NCBI GenBank assembly: GCA_022979955.1
Contig: GCA_022979955.1_3642.1
From: a phage
DNA length: 64,000 nucleotides
Direction: 5' to 3' (one strand)
Under the pieces are notes generated by a model. The model saw only the letters and a program-made list of their open reading frames with translations, ran no database searches and was not told the origin of the DNA. The number at the start of each line of letters is the position of its first letter. Position 1 is the stretch's first letter. Of the stretch, positions 2,288 through 64,000 are shown piece by piece. A program made the translations under genes and the position numbers.

Positions 2288-2854
2288 TTATTCAAACTGC
2301 AATAGCAAGTCCACCACCGCACTAGGCCTGTCAACAAATTCCCCAGGTCCACATGCCCATAGAGGGTATCCATCAACATACCGCCATATCCAACCTGCAG
2401 TGTGAAGCTCAAGCAGGGCAGTGCCGTCCTTACTGTCAACCACCCTTTCCCACAGTGTTGGGCAGCGAAGCTTGAGAATCGGGTCCCCGCCCTTATACCC
2501 GTCCATGTAGATACCCATTGCAAAGTTCAGCATCATCTTTTTGTGCACTGATCTCTTACTGAGGGTGCTCATCACTTCCTCTTTGTGAATGTTTGTAAGC
2601 TTCTCTTTGGCTACCCGCAGATCATTGCAACCATTGTTCAGCAGATCTTCCAGACACTTGATCCGAAGGTCGTGAATGTCTTTGTCGTGTACAGTTGGCA
2701 CGGGGTCGTAGCGGTATAGCACCGTTGATACAAGGTTGCTCGGGTGTGGGTCTGACAGCAACCCATAACCCCAATACTCTTCTGTATCTGAAAGGACAAG
2801 ACACCCAATGTCTCTGTCAAGCTTTCCTGTGTTGTAAGCCACATTGACCGCCAT
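2288..2854 (-). CDS. hypothetical protein
   Basis: 188-aa ORF in co-directional block. Confidence 0.45.
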   Translation of the reverse strand: MAVNVAYNTGKLDRDIGCLVLSDTEEYWGYGLLSDPHPSNLVSTVLYRYDPVPTVHDKDIHDLRIKCLEDLLNNGCNDLRVAKEKLTNIHKEEVMSTLSKRSVHKKMMLNFAMGIYMDGYKGGDPILKLRCPTLWERVVDSKDGTALLELHTAGWIWRYVDGYPLWACGPGEFVDRPSAVVDLLLQFE

Positions 2855-2856
2855 GA

Positions 2857-3102
2857 CTATAGCTCCACTAGCAAAGTGCTTTCAAAGTGCCGTTCATGCA
2901 AACCGTTGTAAGGGACCACTTCTACAACGCCATCACGGACATATGGGGCCATCATGGTGGTATAATCTCCAAACGGGTTGGTATTGTCACTAACCACAAC
3001 CACCTTCTGCCCTTCCTTGGCAGAGTGCCAAATAGATCTGCACTTCATCAGGTGTTCGAGAGCTCCAGGTAAAATTTTGTTACGTTCTTTACGGGTCTTC
3101 AT
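2857..3102 (-). CDS. hypothetical protein
   Basis: 81-aa ORF, 2-nt gap to downstream gene. Confidence 0.4.
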   Translation of the reverse strand: MKTRKERNKILPGALEHLMKCRSIWHSAKEGQKVVVVSDNTNPFGDYTTMMAPYVRDGVVEVVPYNGLHERHFESTLLVEL

Positions 3103-3548
3103 AACAGATATAGCTCCTTATGAAAGTGGTCTTTTAATTTCTCACTGAGAAACTTCTTGATACCTTCCTCTAAAGTGTTTTCGATGTAGTCCAGCTTAAC
3201 TGCTTCGATGGACATATCATAGATTGCCAGCTCTAAGCTGTCAAGTCCCATCATAGCATGAACCATAAGATTTTCATCTTCAGATACATTCAGGGGACTT
3301 CCTATAACATCTGTAGGTAGGATAGTTTCCCAATTATTCTGGGGGGCAGTTCTCCCACCATCCACTTTACGGCGCAGTTCGAAGGTGTTCTTAGTGTAGA
3401 ACACTTCATAAGAAACGATACGACTATCACTCTCATAATAAACGAAGTTCAGGTAGGAGCCTAGCCGCAGTCGGCAAACTTCTACCCCAAACCATTGTTT
3501 CTTATAAGAATTCAGGCTAATGCTGTCGCATTCACGCTTGCTCAACAC
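3099..3548 (-). CDS. hypothetical protein
   Basis: 149-aa ORF, 4-nt overlap with downstream gene. Confidence 0.45.
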   Translation of the reverse strand: MLSKRECDSISLNSYKKQWFGVEVCRLRLGSYLNFVYYESDSRIVSYEVFYTKNTFELRRKVDGGRTAPQNNWETILPTDVIGSPLNVSEDENLMVHAMMGLDSLELAIYDMSIEAVKLDYIENTLEEGIKKFLSEKLKDHFHKELYLL

Positions 3549-3564
3549 GGCTATCTCCTTTTTG

Positions 3565-3798
3565 TTAATCTTCGTAAATCAGGATTTCTGCTTTAGGTTT
3601 TCGTGCTTTCAAGTCCAGCTCTATCCAGTGCACCATAGCTGTTTCAAGAAAAACAGCTTGGATGCATCCGTCCTCAGCGTGCCCCACCAACATAACAAGA
3701 TCTTCACCTTCGTCATCTGCATCACGAACATACAGAATCTCTCCAGATTCAAAGTCTTTCACAACCTGATTGCTGGATAATTTACGAATTTTTGCCAT
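3565..3798 (-). CDS. hypothetical protein
   Basis: 77-aa ORF in operon-like packing. Confidence 0.4.
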   Translation of the reverse strand: MAKIRKLSSNQVVKDFESGEILYVRDADDEGEDLVMLVGHAEDGCIQAVFLETAMVHWIELDLKARKPKAEILIYED

Positions 3799-3799
3799 A

Positions 3800-4063
3800 T
3801 CAGAAACCCTCTAAAAAGCTCTTGTAGAAAATAATTTCAGTATCAACACCAGTCACGATCTTGTCGTTCCTGATTTCATCGGTAAGATAGGTGTCAAAAC
3901 GCAGAACCTGTGTGGTATTGTCGCACATCCACTCAGCTGTGACCATGGCGAAAATCTTAGCATCTTCATTATCTGGTGTAAATGTTACCACCTCACCACA
4001 TTTAAATTTTTCGATAGGTTGCGTGTTAGCTTTCGGTTCTGCAATAGTGATTTTCGTGGTCAT
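3800..4063 (-). CDS. hypothetical protein
   Basis: 87-aa ORF, 1-nt gap to next gene. Confidence 0.4.
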   Translation of the reverse strand: MTTKITIAEPKANTQPIEKFKCGEVVTFTPDNEDAKIFAMVTAEWMCDNTTQVLRFDTYLTDEIRNDKIVTGVDTEIIFYKSFLEGF

Positions 4064-4326
4064 TACTCTTCCTCCATAGTTTCACCAAATACTTCGATAC
4101 GAGCATCGAGCTCGGTTGCTTTCAGCTCCCCAACAAAATATTTTAGTTCTTTCTTGTCCAGATCGTAAGCCCACACACAAGAAGAACATGCAGTCACAAT
4201 CAGCAGCGTAGATACACGACCTGACTCTGTGATCATGCTCACAATGGTTCCCACAGGGAACGTGTTGATAGCTTTTTTAACTGGGCGTTCAGCTTTAATT
4301 ACTACCTCTGTTGCCATAAATAACAT
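4063..4326 (-). CDS. hypothetical protein
   Basis: 87-aa ORF, overlaps neighbour by 1 nt. Confidence 0.4.
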   Translation of the reverse strand: MLFMATEVVIKAERPVKKAINTFPVGTIVSMITESGRVSTLLIVTACSSCVWAYDLDKKELKYFVGELKATELDARIEVFGETMEEE

Positions 4327-44220: not shown

Positions 44221-44484
44221 ATGAAACGTCTTGATCAGCTCAAATTAGTTCAATATATGGCTTATCGTGTTCTTGAAGTCCAGAAAGGTAGCAAAAAAGA
44301 GGTTTGCGAGAAAGCTTATAAGATCTTCACTCGCAAAAAAGATGACTGGATGCTACGCCAGACTAAAAAGGCTGACATCTTGGGGTACCTGGAAGAAGAG
44401 ATCCGCCTTGAAGAGCAAGAAGAGATCCGCCGTAGTGAGGCAGATTATCAGGCAGCTTGGGAAAACTGGATGAGCAACAAATAA
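44221..44484 (+). CDS. hypothetical protein
   Basis: 87-aa charged ORF with AAGAGG SD; leader hairpin GGGCC-AAAA-GGCCC. Confidence 0.45.
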   Translation: MKRLDQLKLVQYMAYRVLEVQKGSKKEVCEKAYKIFTRKKDDWMLRQTKKADILGYLEEEIRLEEQEEIRRSEADYQAAWENWMSNK

Positions 44485-44627: not shown

Positions 44628-45047
44628 ATGAACATTAAATCTAATAATCCGGCATATAGCTTTGATAACGCTTTTTGTCACGGTCCGGCGGCGAAAGGAT
44701 TCGAAATCGATGGTAAACTAATTATTGTCAATGTTGACGGGGAAGAGGTTGCAGTATATCCGGTGGCAGACGTAAAAAGCCGTTTACAATGCCGCATGGA
44801 TGTTACCGCCTATCAGCTTGATCCGGTCCGCATAGTTGCCCTGGTCCTGGAAGAAGAAATTAAAGCCATGCACCATAGCAACAGATTTATTGGTGACGCG
44901 CAGGATAATATGAAAGTATGCCGCCATAAAGTTAATGAAGTGCTTAAAGAGTACGGCTATAGAGATCTTATGATCAAACGTGAGGAAAAATTCCGCTACC
45001 GTAACGACCTGGCAAATCGGATTTTTGAAATATACGAATCATTATAA
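44628..45047 (+). CDS. hypothetical protein
   Basis: 139-aa ORF with AAGAGG SD; last gene of plus-strand array. Confidence 0.45.
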   Translation: MNIKSNNPAYSFDNAFCHGPAAKGFEIDGKLIIVNVDGEEVAVYPVADVKSRLQCRMDVTAYQLDPVRIVALVLEEEIKAMHHSNRFIGDAQDNMKVCRHKVNEVLKEYGYRDLMIKREEKFRYRNDLANRIFEIYESL

Positions 45048-45065: not shown

Positions 45066-45092
45066 AAGGGGCTTAGGCCCCTTTCTTTTTGT
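45066..45092 (+). terminator. rho-independent terminator
   Basis: AAGGGGC-TTAG-GCCCCTT hairpin followed by TCTTTTTGT. Confidence 0.65.
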
Positions 45093-45689
45093 CTGCTCTT
45101 CTCCTACCATAAACGGCCCTACCTGGCAAGTGGAATAATTGACTAGCCATCAATCCCACATACTGTACAAATATACATGGAAAATAACTATTGCATAATT
45201 TTTCATTGTGTGGTAGCAAGTCCATTTTTACCCGTTTTCTCTCCCAAAAGTGCACGTAATGCCGCTATTGCACAAATTTTAACCTGATGCACATCTCTAA
45301 TATCTTGTCAACAACTAAAAATCTTTATAAGTCATACACTTACACAGCATCGAAAGCGTGTTCTACGCGAAAAATCGAGTATAACTATAGCCGCCAGATC
45401 TCAGAATTCACGTACGCACGCCATTCTATAGCCTGCAAAGTATTTATTCCAACCACAGAATAACGGAATAGTCAATACCTGCATAAAATAATTATTCGTG
45501 TAAACTGCATAACATAAATCAGCTCAGGTGTCAACATTTTTCGTAAACAGTTCGAAATTGTCACGGTAAGTTATTATACACAGAGAAATCTTTAGTCGTC
45601 TAATGGTTACTATACATTACTAATCTGACTGGAATCATTAGATGACTAATAGAAAGATAAGAAATAATTAACAGTCTAATTATATTAAC

Positions 45690-45970
45690 GATAACAATAA
45701 CAGCGGTTAAAGTCATGGCGCGACGGAGTCGCGACATAATAACACCGAGTAACCCTCACCCCCGTGAGCGTTGCGAATGTTATTATGCCATGACTAAATC
45801 ATTTCAACACGTAACTATAGGCATAACAACATTCCCTCGGTGTTATTATGTCGCTAGTTATTATATAACTGTTAACAATAACGCCTCGGGAATAGTTCTG
45901 CCTGCACGATGTTTATAACAGCAAGTTATGATCAACATTTCACAGATTATAATAACAGCGGTTAAAGTCA
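45690..45970. repeat. direct-repeat pair flanking a 19-bp inverted repeat
   Basis: AATAACAGCGGTTAAAGTCA exact at 45696-45715 and 45951-45970; inside, GCGACATAATAACACCGAG (45731-45749) and its reverse complement (45836-45854). Confidence 0.6.
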
Positions 45971-46597
45971 GGCGTAGAAACAGTGGAAGTGTAAACAGTC
46001 AATCATGTAAATGATAAGTATGTGAACAGTTATCCATGTAAACTATTAGACATGTAAACAATCAGGTGTGCAAAAGTGTCAAGGGTGTCACCATTGTGTC
46101 TAAAGTGTCGTATGTCATCAGTATGTCAGACAAGTTTTTCTCCTCTTTGTCAAGTGCTGCATGAAAAATTTACAATCTTGTATGGTAGCATTTTTGCGGT
46201 CCTGTTTACATTCAGAGATGTATGTATAATCCTTGTTGTGTGGGCGTTTAGACGTCTAGACGGTCAGAAGTCTGCAGGTCAATATCTAATCTATTGGCTG
46301 CTAACTATATCCCACACAAATAGTAAGAAATATAATTGTTATATGCGTAAACAGTAACCCATGTTATCAATCCCTGTATGGATCGCCAGTGGTGCGCATA
46401 ATGGGTATTATGTTAAATTGCCCGTAATGATAATGGTTCTCACAATGATATGTATTCTCATTCCCCCACACAAAATAGATTGCAAATGTTGTGCCACTAT
46501 GTGAACGGCCTCACCTATTAATTTGCCTCACTGCCTCGATATTTGAGAATTATTATAAGAATGAGAAGTATTCCCATTTCGTCCGCCTGGCAGCGCT

Positions 46598-46657
46598 CCT
46601 GTAGGTCCTGCAAGGACTCTAGCTGAAAGCTAGACCCTTCGGGCCTCCCTGTAGGTC
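46598..46657. other. three consecutive tetraloop hairpins bracketed by CCTGTAGGTC direct repeats
   Basis: GTCCT-GCA-AGGAC, CTAGC-TGAAA-GCTAG, CCC-TTCG-GGG; CCTGTAGGTC at 46598 and 46648. Confidence 0.4.
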
Positions 46658-46705
46658 AGGTCAAAATCGTGGTAGAATTGGGCCTATTCAGATATTTCTG
46701 GCTGG

Positions 46706-46900
46706 CTCTTCAGGTCTGTGTGGGAAAAGCCAACCTCTCCGGCGGGGCAGGGGGAGGTAAATTAAAAAATTTACGGGGTATATGAAGCGCTCTTCAGGTA
46801 AGGCATGTACTATGGGATGAAACCCTCTTCAGGCAATGATATTTGTGGGTGTGATATTTGCTGGAAAGCCAGATATGACGGGACTCCCGGCGGGGCAGGG
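46706..46900. repeat. degenerate tandem unit CTCTTCAGG...CCGGCGGGGCAGGG
   Basis: CTCTTCAGG at 46706, 46790, 46825 (also 47238, 47886); CCGGCGGGGCAGGG at 46739 and 46887. Confidence 0.55.
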
Positions 46901-47596
46901 GTAGTACAGACAGGGAAAATATGAGAATGTAGTTGGGGAAATTGATCAGACAGGTAGAGTATGGAATATGTTACAAGTATGTTAAATATGGAGGTTGAAT
47001 ATCTGTAGGATTTGTGTGTAAAATCAAAGACTTAAGGGGTGTTGTGGTATTTTCTATAAATAATTCAAGTTTAATAGGCAATATTTGTCTCTATCCGCTT
47101 TGTGTGGTAAACAGATTCAGATTAGATTGGTTTACAAGTGTATACATAATATACAAATTAAAGATACAAGAAACCCCCCTCCCCCTTCGGCTACCATTCA
47201 CCTTTTCCTCTGACTGGTACTTAAACACTTATTCAGACTCTTCAGGTTATCACCCATATATCATATGGCAGTGACTGGTGTCCTCCGGCCCCTCTTTCGT
47301 CACCCGTCCGCTTCGCCATGCTAATGCCATAGCTAATGGTTCGGTTGTTCACCCTGTTCACTCAGGTGTATCTCTATACCCCTTCAAACCGAAGAGAACA
47401 GAAAACCCGAATTACTCGGTAAAAGAAAAGAGAAGAACTTAATTTTATCAGGATAGGCAAGAATGTCAAGGCATGACTGCTCACTAAACAAGCAAACAGT
47501 CATGTGTGGGAGGTAAGTGATTGTGGTGGTAGGAAATTTAGTTGAAAGATGTGTTATAGGTGCTTCCAGCACTTTAGCCTGGCAGCTAATTGTGTG

Positions 47597-47812
47597 TCAG
47601 TCCAGCGGTTCATCCTCTACTTCACTGAAATCAATGTTCATGGTCTCTTCCCAACCATCGATCTCAGCACAAGAGTGGAGTTCTTTAGGGTTTACTCCCA
47701 AAGCCTCAGCAACAGAGTCTATATTTAACACCTCTGGCAGGTATGTTTCATCGAATTCAAGGTAAATCAGGCCACGAGTGTTGTCAGCTCCACCAAATAT
47801 TTCTATCTTCAT
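47597..47812 (-). CDS. hypothetical acidic protein
   Basis: 71-aa ORF; last gene of minus-strand block. Confidence 0.4.
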   Translation of the reverse strand: MKIEIFGGADNTRGLIYLEFDETYLPEVLNIDSVAEALGVNPKELHSCAEIDGWEETMNIDFSEVEDEPLD

Positions 47813-47933
47813 GAAATCTCCTCTGGAAATGAGAGTGTGAACAGGGTTTTATACGTTCCAATGCACTGGAATTATACACGTTTGCCTCTTCAGGCCATGC
47901 TTTAGCATGAGGAGCCTGTGTGGGCTCGGTGCT

Positions 47934-48347
47934 TCATAGTCTACCACCTCTGAACTCTTCGTGCTCAGGCATAATAGAGAACCAGATATCTACGATGTCT
48001 TCCCACGTTAGGTCATCAGCCTCAGGATCTGTCTGGGACGAAGATGGAGAATCTTCAGAATCGAAGTTTTCCTCTTGCACTGGCTCAGTCAAGGGACATA
48101 TAGTCACTCCTTTGGATGTCTCTTCAGATGCATGTGTGTTTATCATGTTCCACCCGTGAGTATTCCGGCAACAGCCACTATGGACGTAATGATCATCAGG
48201 ATCACCACCAAAACCTCTGACAATGTTTTCATTGTGTATCCCATATTCTCCAAACGATGTGTGGATACTATCACTGGAGCGGCAATGTGTCAACAGAAAC
48301 GCCGCGAGGGTTTGGTTAAAATCCGAGCGTATGGTGATTTGGGTCAA
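47934..48347 (-). CDS. hypothetical protein
   Basis: 137-aa ORF. Confidence 0.45.
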   Translation of the reverse strand: MTQITIRSDFNQTLAAFLLTHCRSSDSIHTSFGEYGIHNENIVRGFGGDPDDHYVHSGCCRNTHGWNMINTHASEETSKGVTICPLTEPVQEENFDSEDSPSSSQTDPEADDLTWEDIVDIWFSIMPEHEEFRGGRL

Positions 48348-63299: not shown

Positions 63300-64000
63300 T
63301 CAGCAACCACAACTTCCGTAGTGCTTAACTCGCTCGATAACTTCCGCTTGCTTACCTTTATTGTAAGGACGGGAGTTAGGACTGGAAAGATATCCAGACA
63401 CTCTTCGGATCACTGAGATATATTGTTCATCGTGGCATCCACACGCAGGGCAGCAGAACCCTTTAGCTGTTGCACTGAACTCACCAGAGAAACCGCACTT
63501 AAGACATTTATCCACAGGCTGGTTAATACCAAAATACATAATGTGTTTATATCCGAAATCAACAAGAGCTTCCAAAGCATCTAAGTTGTTTTTCAGATTT
63601 GGTGTCTCTATGTACCCAATGTTGCCACCAGAGGAGATCATAGCAAAACCTTCCTCATACTTCCACTTATCAAAAGGCGAGCTATTTATCCATACTGGCT
63701 GATGGAAACTGTTGGTGAGATATTCATGCTCATGCTTCAACACTTCAGGATATTCACGATCCAGACAGGTTGCAGCTTTATAGCATAGACTCTCAGAAGG
63801 GGTGCCGTACAAGCTAAACGCTAGTCTACTTTCCTTCTTGTATCGCTCACAAGCATCTCTCATGTGCTGAAGGATTCCAAGAGCTAAAGCCTTGTCACCC
63901 TCTCTGCCCAAAATCTGACAGGTTTCATACACACCAATATACCCAATACTGATGGAAGCGTACCCGTCATAGAAGAGTTTATCAATACTCTCTTCAGGAT
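63300..64000 (-). CDS. nrdD: anaerobic ribonucleoside-triphosphate reductase, C-terminal part (5' end beyond window)
   Basis: Zinc-ribbon CLKCG...CPACG and glycyl-radical-type motif RRVSGYL near C-terminus; reading frame open to the window edge. Confidence 0.8.
   Translation of the reverse strand, partial: PEESIDKLFYDGYASISIGYIGVYETCQILGREGDKALALGILQHMRDACERYKKESRLAFSLYGTPSESLCYKAATCLDREYPEVLKHEHEYLTNSFHQPVWINSSPFDKWKYEEGFAMISSGGNIGYIETPNLKNNLDALEALVDFGYKHIMYFGINQPVDKCLKCGFSGEFSATAKGFCCPACGCHDEQYISVIRRVSGYLSSPNSRPYNKGKQAEVIERVKHYGSCGC

Follow-up and report, generated by a model that had tools for sequence, protein, structure and literature searches.

The 160-bp terminal repetition of bacteriophage T7 is flanked by arrays of short repeats, reportedly described by Dunn and Studier in 1983. 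During packaging of T7 DNA, the concatemer junction is recognized at pacB and cleaved at pacC (PMC9860248). For Vequintavirus, the genus of rV5-like phages of Escherichia coli, "short terminal redundancies of 458 bp" have been described in EdH4 and HdK5 (Korf 2019, PMC6563267), and 459-bp terminal repeats together with a fixed packaging start in Gotham (Dias 2020, PMC7471380). In the rV5 genome paper, the gap between the gene arms appears as a "non-coding" box in which no terminators were found, and changes in skew were ascribed to the orientation of transcription. Here, we analyzed a 64,000-nucleotide stretch of phage DNA (contig GCA_022979955.1_3642.1 of GenBank assembly GCA_022979955.1; hereafter the window), in which a first-pass annotation, made from the letters alone, had singled out positions 46598–47894 for five copies of the 9-mer CTCTTCAGG, two copies of the G-rich 14-mer CCGGCGGGGCAGGG and three adjacent hairpins. 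With a probability of roughly 40%, we interpret this region as a cis-acting terminal module of the Vequintavirus chromosome, with predicted polar DNA sites for recognition of the concatemer junction and for packaging.

Results

A one-strand 9-mer array in the terminal gap

All five plus-strand copies of CTCTTCAGG listed by the first-pass annotation proved exact (Table 1), and the window as a whole holds six copies against 0.50 expected, with six or more found in 0 of 100 shuffles. When the words of 45090–47950 were scanned against the rest of the window, the same 9-mer came out as the most enriched. The sixth copy, at 63990, lies within a coding sequence and is followed by A. Genome-wide, the distribution is uneven in both position and strand: of eight copies in the complete EdH4 genome (136,031 bp), five are found about 70–1260 bp from the direct terminal repeat (DTR), all on a single strand. 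The clustering of CTCTTCAGG is real and not a product of chance. Spacing between consecutive copies in the window is irregular (84, 35, 413 and 648 bp).

The core of the 9-mer, CTTCAGG, occurs four times in a 959-bp non-coding segment, i.e. at 4.2 per kb, as compared with 0.17 per kb on the antisense strand of coding DNA, a 25-fold difference (P = 2e-5). A mild antisense excess of CTTCAGG in coding DNA (22 vs. 12) can be explained by CTG-AAG codon pairs, whereas the 25-fold local excess is not so explained. A missed coding sequence behind the array was considered as well and rejected, as copies 1–4 are covered by no open reading frame (ORF).

The array adjoins the mapped chromosome ends

The window was assigned to Vequintavirus on the basis of 90–98% identity to about 120 genomes of this genus, and a blastn search (word size 11) for homologues at the DNA level returned Vequintavirus records only, with none outside the genus. 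The database record of EdH4 has its first base at window position 46587 and its last at 46129, with an exact 459-bp repeat at both ends, and the bov10K2 family of records is likewise opened at 46587. Because these record ends coincide with the published repeats of 458 or 459 bp, the same 459 bp of the window were taken as the DTR, that is, as the physical ends of the chromosome. The region highlighted by the first-pass annotation, which starts at 46598, begins 11 bp past the right boundary of the DTR, and the first CTCTTCAGG lies 119 bp from that boundary. Hena1, in which a DTR of 519 bp is annotated, has the same internal landmarks as Vequintavirus.

In a within-genus alignment of 16 diverse Vequintavirus members, conservation was scored as the fraction of other genomes identical to the window, averaged per 25-nt window. 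The score is 0.86–0.99 in the DTR and changes steeply at both of its borders, with two hypervariable blocks (45740–46128 and 46588–46689) lying exactly outside and reaching only 0.1–0.7, as against more than 0.9 inside. Farther right, the block 46690–47600 scores 0.81–1.00, compared with about 0.6–0.9 for left-arm coding DNA upstream of the gap. The left hypervariable block contains three copies of CATGTAAA along with GTAAACAG repeats, and four GTGTC, a recognition sequence of T7-type primases, within 46076–46109.

The two ends of the DTR carry landmarks of their own (Table 1). The form GTCCG[TC]C of the motif at the right cut is found at +190 to +235 from the dif-like site described below in four lineages (Vequintavirus, Hena1, PVP-SE1 and KpS11) and, in Hena1, terminates within 1–2 bp of the annotated DTR end (519). 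At the left end, TGTCAAG followed by TTACAA(T/A) is kept in PVP-SE1 and KpS11, and it is this TGTCAAG that supplies most of the −35 element of the inward-pointing promoter. The 10-mer GCCTGGCAGC, present at 46585 and 47577, was tried as a second mimic of the cut site and discarded, the 47577 copy not being conserved among relatives. Phage I29 (ON286975.1) has, at about 2800–4250, a duplication of about 590 bp which includes the dif site and the motif arrays and is joined via a perfect palindrome and CCCTGT microhomology. Template switching at the terminus may truly have produced this duplication, or else it is an error of assembly.

Table 1. Positions of sequence features in and around the terminal gap of the window
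Feature	Position	Strand	Details
CTCTTCAGG copy 1	46706-46714	+	invariant in 16/16 genomes
CTCTTCAGG copy 2	46790-46798	+	abolished by a point mutation in FV3 only
CTCTTCAGG copy 3	46825-46833	+	abolished by a point mutation in B9-1 and WalterGehring
CTCTTCAGG copy 4	47238-47246	+	within the ultra-conserved block; invariant in 16/16 genomes
CTCTTCAGG copy 5	47886-47894	+	kept in all genomes whose fetched locus extends there
GATATTT array	46538, 46691, 46838, 46853	+	span 46538-46859; 46538 is in the DTR, ~45 bp before the cut
Direct terminal repeat (physical chromosome ends)	46129-46587		459 bp; limits from EdH4 record ends and published termini
DTR right-cut motif GTCCGCC	46581-46587	+	
Sigma70-like promoter TTGTCA-18-TACAAT	46147-46176	+	~20 bp from DTR left end, inward-pointing
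dif-like XerC/XerD site GGTGCGCATAA-TGGGTA-TTATGTTAAAT	46391-46418	+	inside DTR, 180 bp left of the highlighted region
G-rich 14-mer CCGGCGGGGCAGGG copy 1	46739-46752	+	contains GGGCAGGG at 46745-46752
G-rich 14-mer CCGGCGGGGCAGGG copy 2	46887-46900	+	contains GGGCAGGG at 46893-46900; kept in 13/16 genomes
C6TC5 on + (G5AG6 on -)	47173-47184	-	contains GGGGAGGG at 47177-47184; kept in 16/16 genomes
Hairpin triplet (50-bp insertion)	46608-46657	+	bounded by duplicated 10-mer CCTGTAGGTC (46598-46607, 46648-46657)
AT-rich spacer	46915-47164		30% GC, partly variable; flanking blocks 45-51% GC
Ultra-conserved ORF-free block	47165-47590		~430 bp; identity 0.92-1.00 per 25-nt window, 16 genomes
Sigma70-like promoter TTGACA-16-TAAAAT with upstream TG	47442-47469	-	11/12 matches, toward DTR
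Short hairpin and T-run	47407-47419	-	directly downstream of the 47442-47469 promoter, within ~15 nt
ORF-free gap	45090-47597		2.5 kb; gene arms converge here
Left gene arm, final gene	44628-45047	+	terminator 45066-45083
Right gene arm, final gene	47812-47597	-	

Both arrays are conserved in genera that cannot be aligned

Within the genus, all 16 members carry four to five copies of CTCTTCAGG, with order and strand unchanged. To compare genera, loci were anchored on the dif-like site in the DTR in Vequintavirus and seven other lineages (Henunavirus Hena1, Seunavirus PVP-SE1, Certrevirus CR8 and KaOmega, Mydovirus KpS11, Serratia phage Kashira and Avunavirus 19-1-2), the DNA of which is otherwise unalignable with the window. 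In the interval from +250 to +1000 from dif, the eight loci together contain 16 CTTCAGG on the plus strand and none on the minus strand (0.37 expected), and after removal of Vequintavirus 12 remained against 0.32 expected. The exact motif is present in the homologous zone, on the same strand, in six of the eight Vequintavirinae lineages, while the zone of Hena1 contains only the variants TTCAGGG, CTCAAGG and CTCAGGG.

A second motif, GATATTT, brackets the right cut of the DTR on the same strand in all eight lineages, each having a single copy that precedes the cut by about 45 bp and one to three more in the roughly 270 bp beyond it; in the window, the copies beyond the cut are 104–266 bp from the DTR boundary. 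No GATATTT was found on the opposite strand of the cut zone in any of the eight lineages. The one-strand CTCTTCAGG array is interleaved with a one-strand GATATTT array and with G-rich elements. As the motifs, and not the sequence surrounding them, have been kept across unalignable genera, the terminal module is ancient.

A dif-like site inside the terminal repeat and G-rich elements beside it

The arms of the dif-like XerC/XerD site in the DTR match the E. coli consensus at 22 of 22 positions in the 11-6-11 architecture, with 0 matches in shuffles, while the centre reads TGGGTA as opposed to TGTATA in the host and is unlike that of the host in all eight lineages. The site was found in 16 of 16 genus members and in the eight Vequintavirinae lineages, which infect six host genera, its orientation relative to the landmarks of the DTR is constant among them, and in Hena1 it falls within the annotated DTR. 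Cumulative GC skew is maximal at the gap and dif site. Of 5426 complete E. coli genomes, 5403 matched a 51-bp query around the phage site at a single chromosomal place, and with one dif place per genome no integration of the phage at the host dif was seen. In E. coli D8, the matching place, to which the phage site aligns, has the sequence GGTGCGCATAATGTATATTATGTTAAAT and lies next to a filamentous prophage encoding Zot and a secretin, which is the expected setting for a chromosomal dif. In the paper library searched, no paper linking Vequintavirinae with Xer or dif was found.

The two CCGGCGGGGCAGGG copies noted in the first-pass annotation are exact, against 0 expected in the window, and the GGGCAGGG that each contains matches GGGNAGGG, the consensus of the FtsK-orienting polar sequence (KOPS; consensus and role in PMC2800217). 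Three GGGNAGGG matches fall within 440 bp (46745 and 46893 on the plus strand, 47177 on the minus strand), as compared with 4.8 expected per 64 kb. Across the genus, copy 1 of the 14-mer reads GGGCAGGG, GGGGAGGG or GGGAAGGG, so that variation is confined to the degenerate N (C, G or A) and all 16 genomes retain the consensus. While the sequences thus agree with KOPS, their polarity is not toward dif: the two plus-strand matches, which lie to the right of dif, are oriented away from it. In Certrevirus the orientation is reversed, in Hena1 the motif is missing, in Kashira and Avunavirus KOPS occur only beyond 1 kb from dif, and genome-wide they are unpolarized (8 and 9 on the two strands). Alternatively, the 14-mer may represent a C-run/G-run hairpin. 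Motifs for matS and Ter gave chance-level matches in the window and none in the region. A scan of viral contigs for CCGGCGGGGCAGGG was uninformative, yielding single chance matches in unrelated contigs only.

The C6TC5 run (on the minus strand G5AG6, then TTTC) is invariant in the 16 genomes and located at the edge of the AT-rich spacer. The G5AG6-TTT run resembles CSBII, a primer-forming G-run element of mitochondrial DNA.

The conserved ORF-free block, its promoters and folding

The motif region, including the ultra-conserved block, contains no credible ORF. The minus-strand promoter in this block is strong and nearly invariant in the genus, with isolated substitutions in a few genomes, and together with the hairpin and T-run below it (47400–47469) could specify a tiny RNA of about 40 nt or an attenuator heading the ultra-conserved block. 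Folding of 46690–46915 and 47160–47440 on both strands gave no structure clearly beyond shuffles (z = +0.14, −1.99, −0.04 and −1.29), and neither an RNA family nor a tRNA was detected by Rfam (E ≤ 1) and ARAGORN. The block also includes a 12-nt tandem repeat, GCCATGCTAAT (2.1 copies, 47315–47338), within which fall the main variable positions of the block, 47334 and 47337. A further word, TGTGTGGG, occurs 12 times in the window (1.95 expected), six of them in the terminal gap (46237–47924) on both strands; elsewhere, it often follows directly on −10-like hexamers or separates a terminator hairpin from a ribosome-binding site.

Hairpin triplet and tandem units

The 10-mer CCTGTAGGTC brackets the three hairpins exactly as the first-pass annotation stated, and the triplet does fold (minimum free energy for DNA −13.1 kcal/mol, z = −2.6), but it is not conserved. 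It corresponds to a 50-bp insertion in the right hypervariable block, just outside the cut, that is missing from 13 of the 16 aligned genomes, five of which have an unrelated insertion of about 40 bp there; in most genomes, CCTGTAGGTC is present here in one copy only. Because only 32 of about 122 records carry the insertion, the triplet is dispensable, an indel at a hotspot and not a conserved element. As for signs of a mobile element, the 10-bp flanking duplication is present, yet the insertion occupies a single locus in every one of the 32 carriers. The proposed tandem units of about 145 nt found little support: Tandem Repeats Finder reported no such repeat, and in a pairwise alignment the two units shared only a GATATTT-TGG block, the block of the G-rich 14-mer and a short CAGGTA, i.e. 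two short blocks and a 6-nt match.

Neighbouring proteins and record labels

In some GenBank records, the ORFs at 44221–44484 and 44628–45047 are annotated as 'DNA translocase FtsK'. A phage-encoded FtsK-gamma at these positions was considered and rejected, the name being unsupported by Pfam and PHROGs. On the other side of the gap, the 71-aa protein (47812–47597) is acidic and has only a faint match to Terminase_5 (E = 0.16). About 19 records labelled 'Campylobacter phage' (MG0656xx, UNVERIFIED) are 94–98% identical to this E. coli Vequintavirus; probably the host has been mislabelled or the records represent contamination.

Discussion

The CTCTTCAGG array is enriched, confined to one strand, placed next to the mapped chromosome ends and conserved in position and strand across genera, and from this we infer protein binding and a role of the arrays in packaging. 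We propose that a phage protein, a recognition factor resembling small terminase subunits, may bind the CTCTTCAGG and GATATTT sites and in this way identify the concatemer junction. The same factor would give polarity to cleavage of the ends and to packaging, in the manner of T7/T3 pacB or lambda cosB. Of the roles offered by the first-pass annotation (terminase sites, initiator sites or non-sigma70 promoters), terminase binding appears favoured by the terminal position, polarity and conservation of the sequence: the array adjoins a mapped virion end and consists of oriented repeats conserved among relatives. Promoters and an iteron origin fit poorly.

Several points weigh against this interpretation. 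The copies are irregularly spaced over 1.3 kb, wider than a classical pac or cos, and exact CTTCAGG is missing from the zone in Hena1 and Kashira. No recognizable DNA-binding domain was found in the neighbouring small proteins (Pfam, PHROGs). Further, headful packaging was inferred with PhageTerm for Vequintavirus BpE1AUH in a 2026 paper, and Certrevirus CB7 and phiTE are described as headful or circularly permuted, so that the published packaging modes conflict with fixed ends for the whole subfamily, for which exact repeats of 458–519 bp are on record in EdH4, HdK5, Gotham and Hena1. Finally, conserved promoters on both strands probably drive transcription of the region, in keeping with a role at the RNA level.

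Such a role would have CUCUUCAGG or CCUGAAGAG recurring in non-coding RNA as a binding site for protein or RNA, a processing site or a component of hairpins, with the gap transcribed rightward from the promoter at the DTR end and/or leftward from the one at 47469–47442. We regard this as unlikely, even though two conserved sigma70-like promoters point into the region and about 430 bp of it (47165–47590) are ORF-free yet almost invariant. On the minus strand, CTCTTCAGG copy 1 makes up one half of a 12-bp hairpin in which the G/A variant of the genus is tolerated only as a G-U pair, and some copies in CR8 and PVP-SE1 lie in small hairpin loops, but the structural context is inconsistent between copies. 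Folding z-scores are ordinary, Rfam gave no match at E ≤ 1, and there is no convincing terminator, only a weak hairpin 15 nt past the minus-strand start; sequences within the genus are too nearly identical for covariation to show. Phage-specific, non-sigma70 promoters are very improbable. Copy 5 does lie, on the minus strand, 74 bp upstream of the first gene of the right arm and has TATAAT after it. None of the other four has a gene downstream in either orientation, and there is no consistent −10 partner, the distance to poor −10-like hexamers varying from 7 to 13 nt. A promoter scan reported none of the copies, the 9-mer is not found upstream of genes elsewhere (the 136 kb of EdH4 contain only three other copies), and the rV5 paper found sigma70-type promoters genome-wide together with a different late-gene motif.

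A host FtsK/XerCD module, in which the 14-mers would be KOPS loading or orienting FtsK near dif and XerCD would cyclize the incoming genome or join or resolve concatemers, with the 9-mers as accessory sites, would cover mainly CCGGCGGGGCAGGG and seems quite unlikely. It is consistent with the perfect dif arms inside the DTR of eight lineages and with three clustered GGGNAGGG, the first of them invariant in consensus. Against it, the plus-strand KOPS point away from dif, and KOPS are flipped in Certrevirus, gone in Hena1, more than 1 kb from dif in Kashira and Avunavirus and without genome-wide polarity; the 14-mer has an alternative reading as a C-run/G-run hairpin; matS and Ter are absent; and the 'FtsK' names of neighbouring ORFs lack support. 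Less likely still is a replication origin or primer-formation zone, in which 250 bp of AT-rich DNA (46915–47164) would serve as unwinding element and the 9-mers as initiator sites. The spacer, at 30% GC between blocks of 45–51% GC, has G-runs converging on it (plus strand on the left, minus strand on the right) and promoters pointing in from both sides, the rV5 paper lists a T7-type primase-helicase and Pol A for the phage, and the likeness of the G5AG6-TTT run to CSBII would suit primer formation. Nevertheless, both gene arms are transcribed toward the locus, so that outgoing forks would meet transcription head-on; within the block, conservation is lowest in the spacer; and the unit of 9 nt at intervals of 84, 35, 413 and 648 bp is short and irregular for iterons, with no recognizable initiator gene adjacent. 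Terminase-directed recognition of the terminus may be considered the best available, if tentative, reading of the sequence.

The dif site next door is the most interesting lead to come from the region, the hairpin triplet and the tandem units being minor. It is conceivable, although doubtful, that dif is a working XerCD substrate in the virulent Vequintavirinae and that the dimer-resolution machinery of the host cyclizes the injected genome or joins or resolves concatemers. A linear genome with a DTR has dif twice as a direct repeat, and recombination by host XerCD could give a circle or, between molecules, head-to-tail concatemers. In that event, and with the same reserve, the G-rich KOPS-like elements, CTTCAGG and GATATTT might make up an accessory or directionality region instead of, or besides, terminase sites. 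If functional, dif in the DTR would provide a first example of host Xer recombination being exploited by a virulent tailed phage.

Later papers gave the length of the terminal repeat but not its surroundings, and the gap is here placed at the chromosome ends. The cut-site landmarks and the two polar arrays are defined for, and common to, a whole subfamily of therapeutic-candidate phages with hosts among E. coli, Salmonella, Klebsiella, Cronobacter, Erwinia and Serratia. They provide mutable targets for the study of how exact terminal repeats are recognized and duplicated in large myoviruses, and can be used for the correct opening and annotation of genomes and for packaging-competent vectors or transducing particles.

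Among described systems, iteron origins likewise have direct repeats adjoining an AT-rich stretch, but their units are 17–22 nt in length as compared with 9 nt here, where spacing is irregular, no initiator gene is adjacent and transcription converges. With the dif/XerCD/FtsK-KOPS system of the E. coli terminus, the phage shares a full 11-6-11 dif with perfect arms, KOPS nearby and a peak of GC skew, while differing in the central 6 bp and in KOPS that are not convergent on dif. Unlike the known Xer-exploiting elements (IMEX: CTXphi, TLC and gokushovirus prophages), the carrier here is a virulent tailed phage of 137 kb. Recombination between the direct repeats of its linear DTR genome would give a circle, as proposed for lox in P1, and such use of Xer, if the above reading is true, would parallel P1 Cre-lox with the machinery supplied by the host. 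Short oriented sites flanking the terminase cut on one side or on both are also a feature of lambda cosB (R sites and an IHF site) and of SPP1 pacL/pacR, corresponding here to GATATTT on both sides and CTTCAGG on one; lambda and SPP1, however, make cohesive ends or package by headful instead of forming exact DTRs, their sites are within about 200 bp of the cut, and there is no sequence similarity. The comparison with T7 and T3 shows differences too, as the motifs are others, the genome is that of a myovirus (about 137 kb) without a phage RNA polymerase, the array of predicted binding sites spans up to 1.3 kb, and dif is inside the repeat, where T7 has none. Yet the overall plan is alike: a short, exact DTR of a few hundred bp, cis signals and arrays of short direct repeats in the adjoining non-coding DNA, host-type promoters at the extreme end pointing inward, and hairpin-prone sequence beside the junction.

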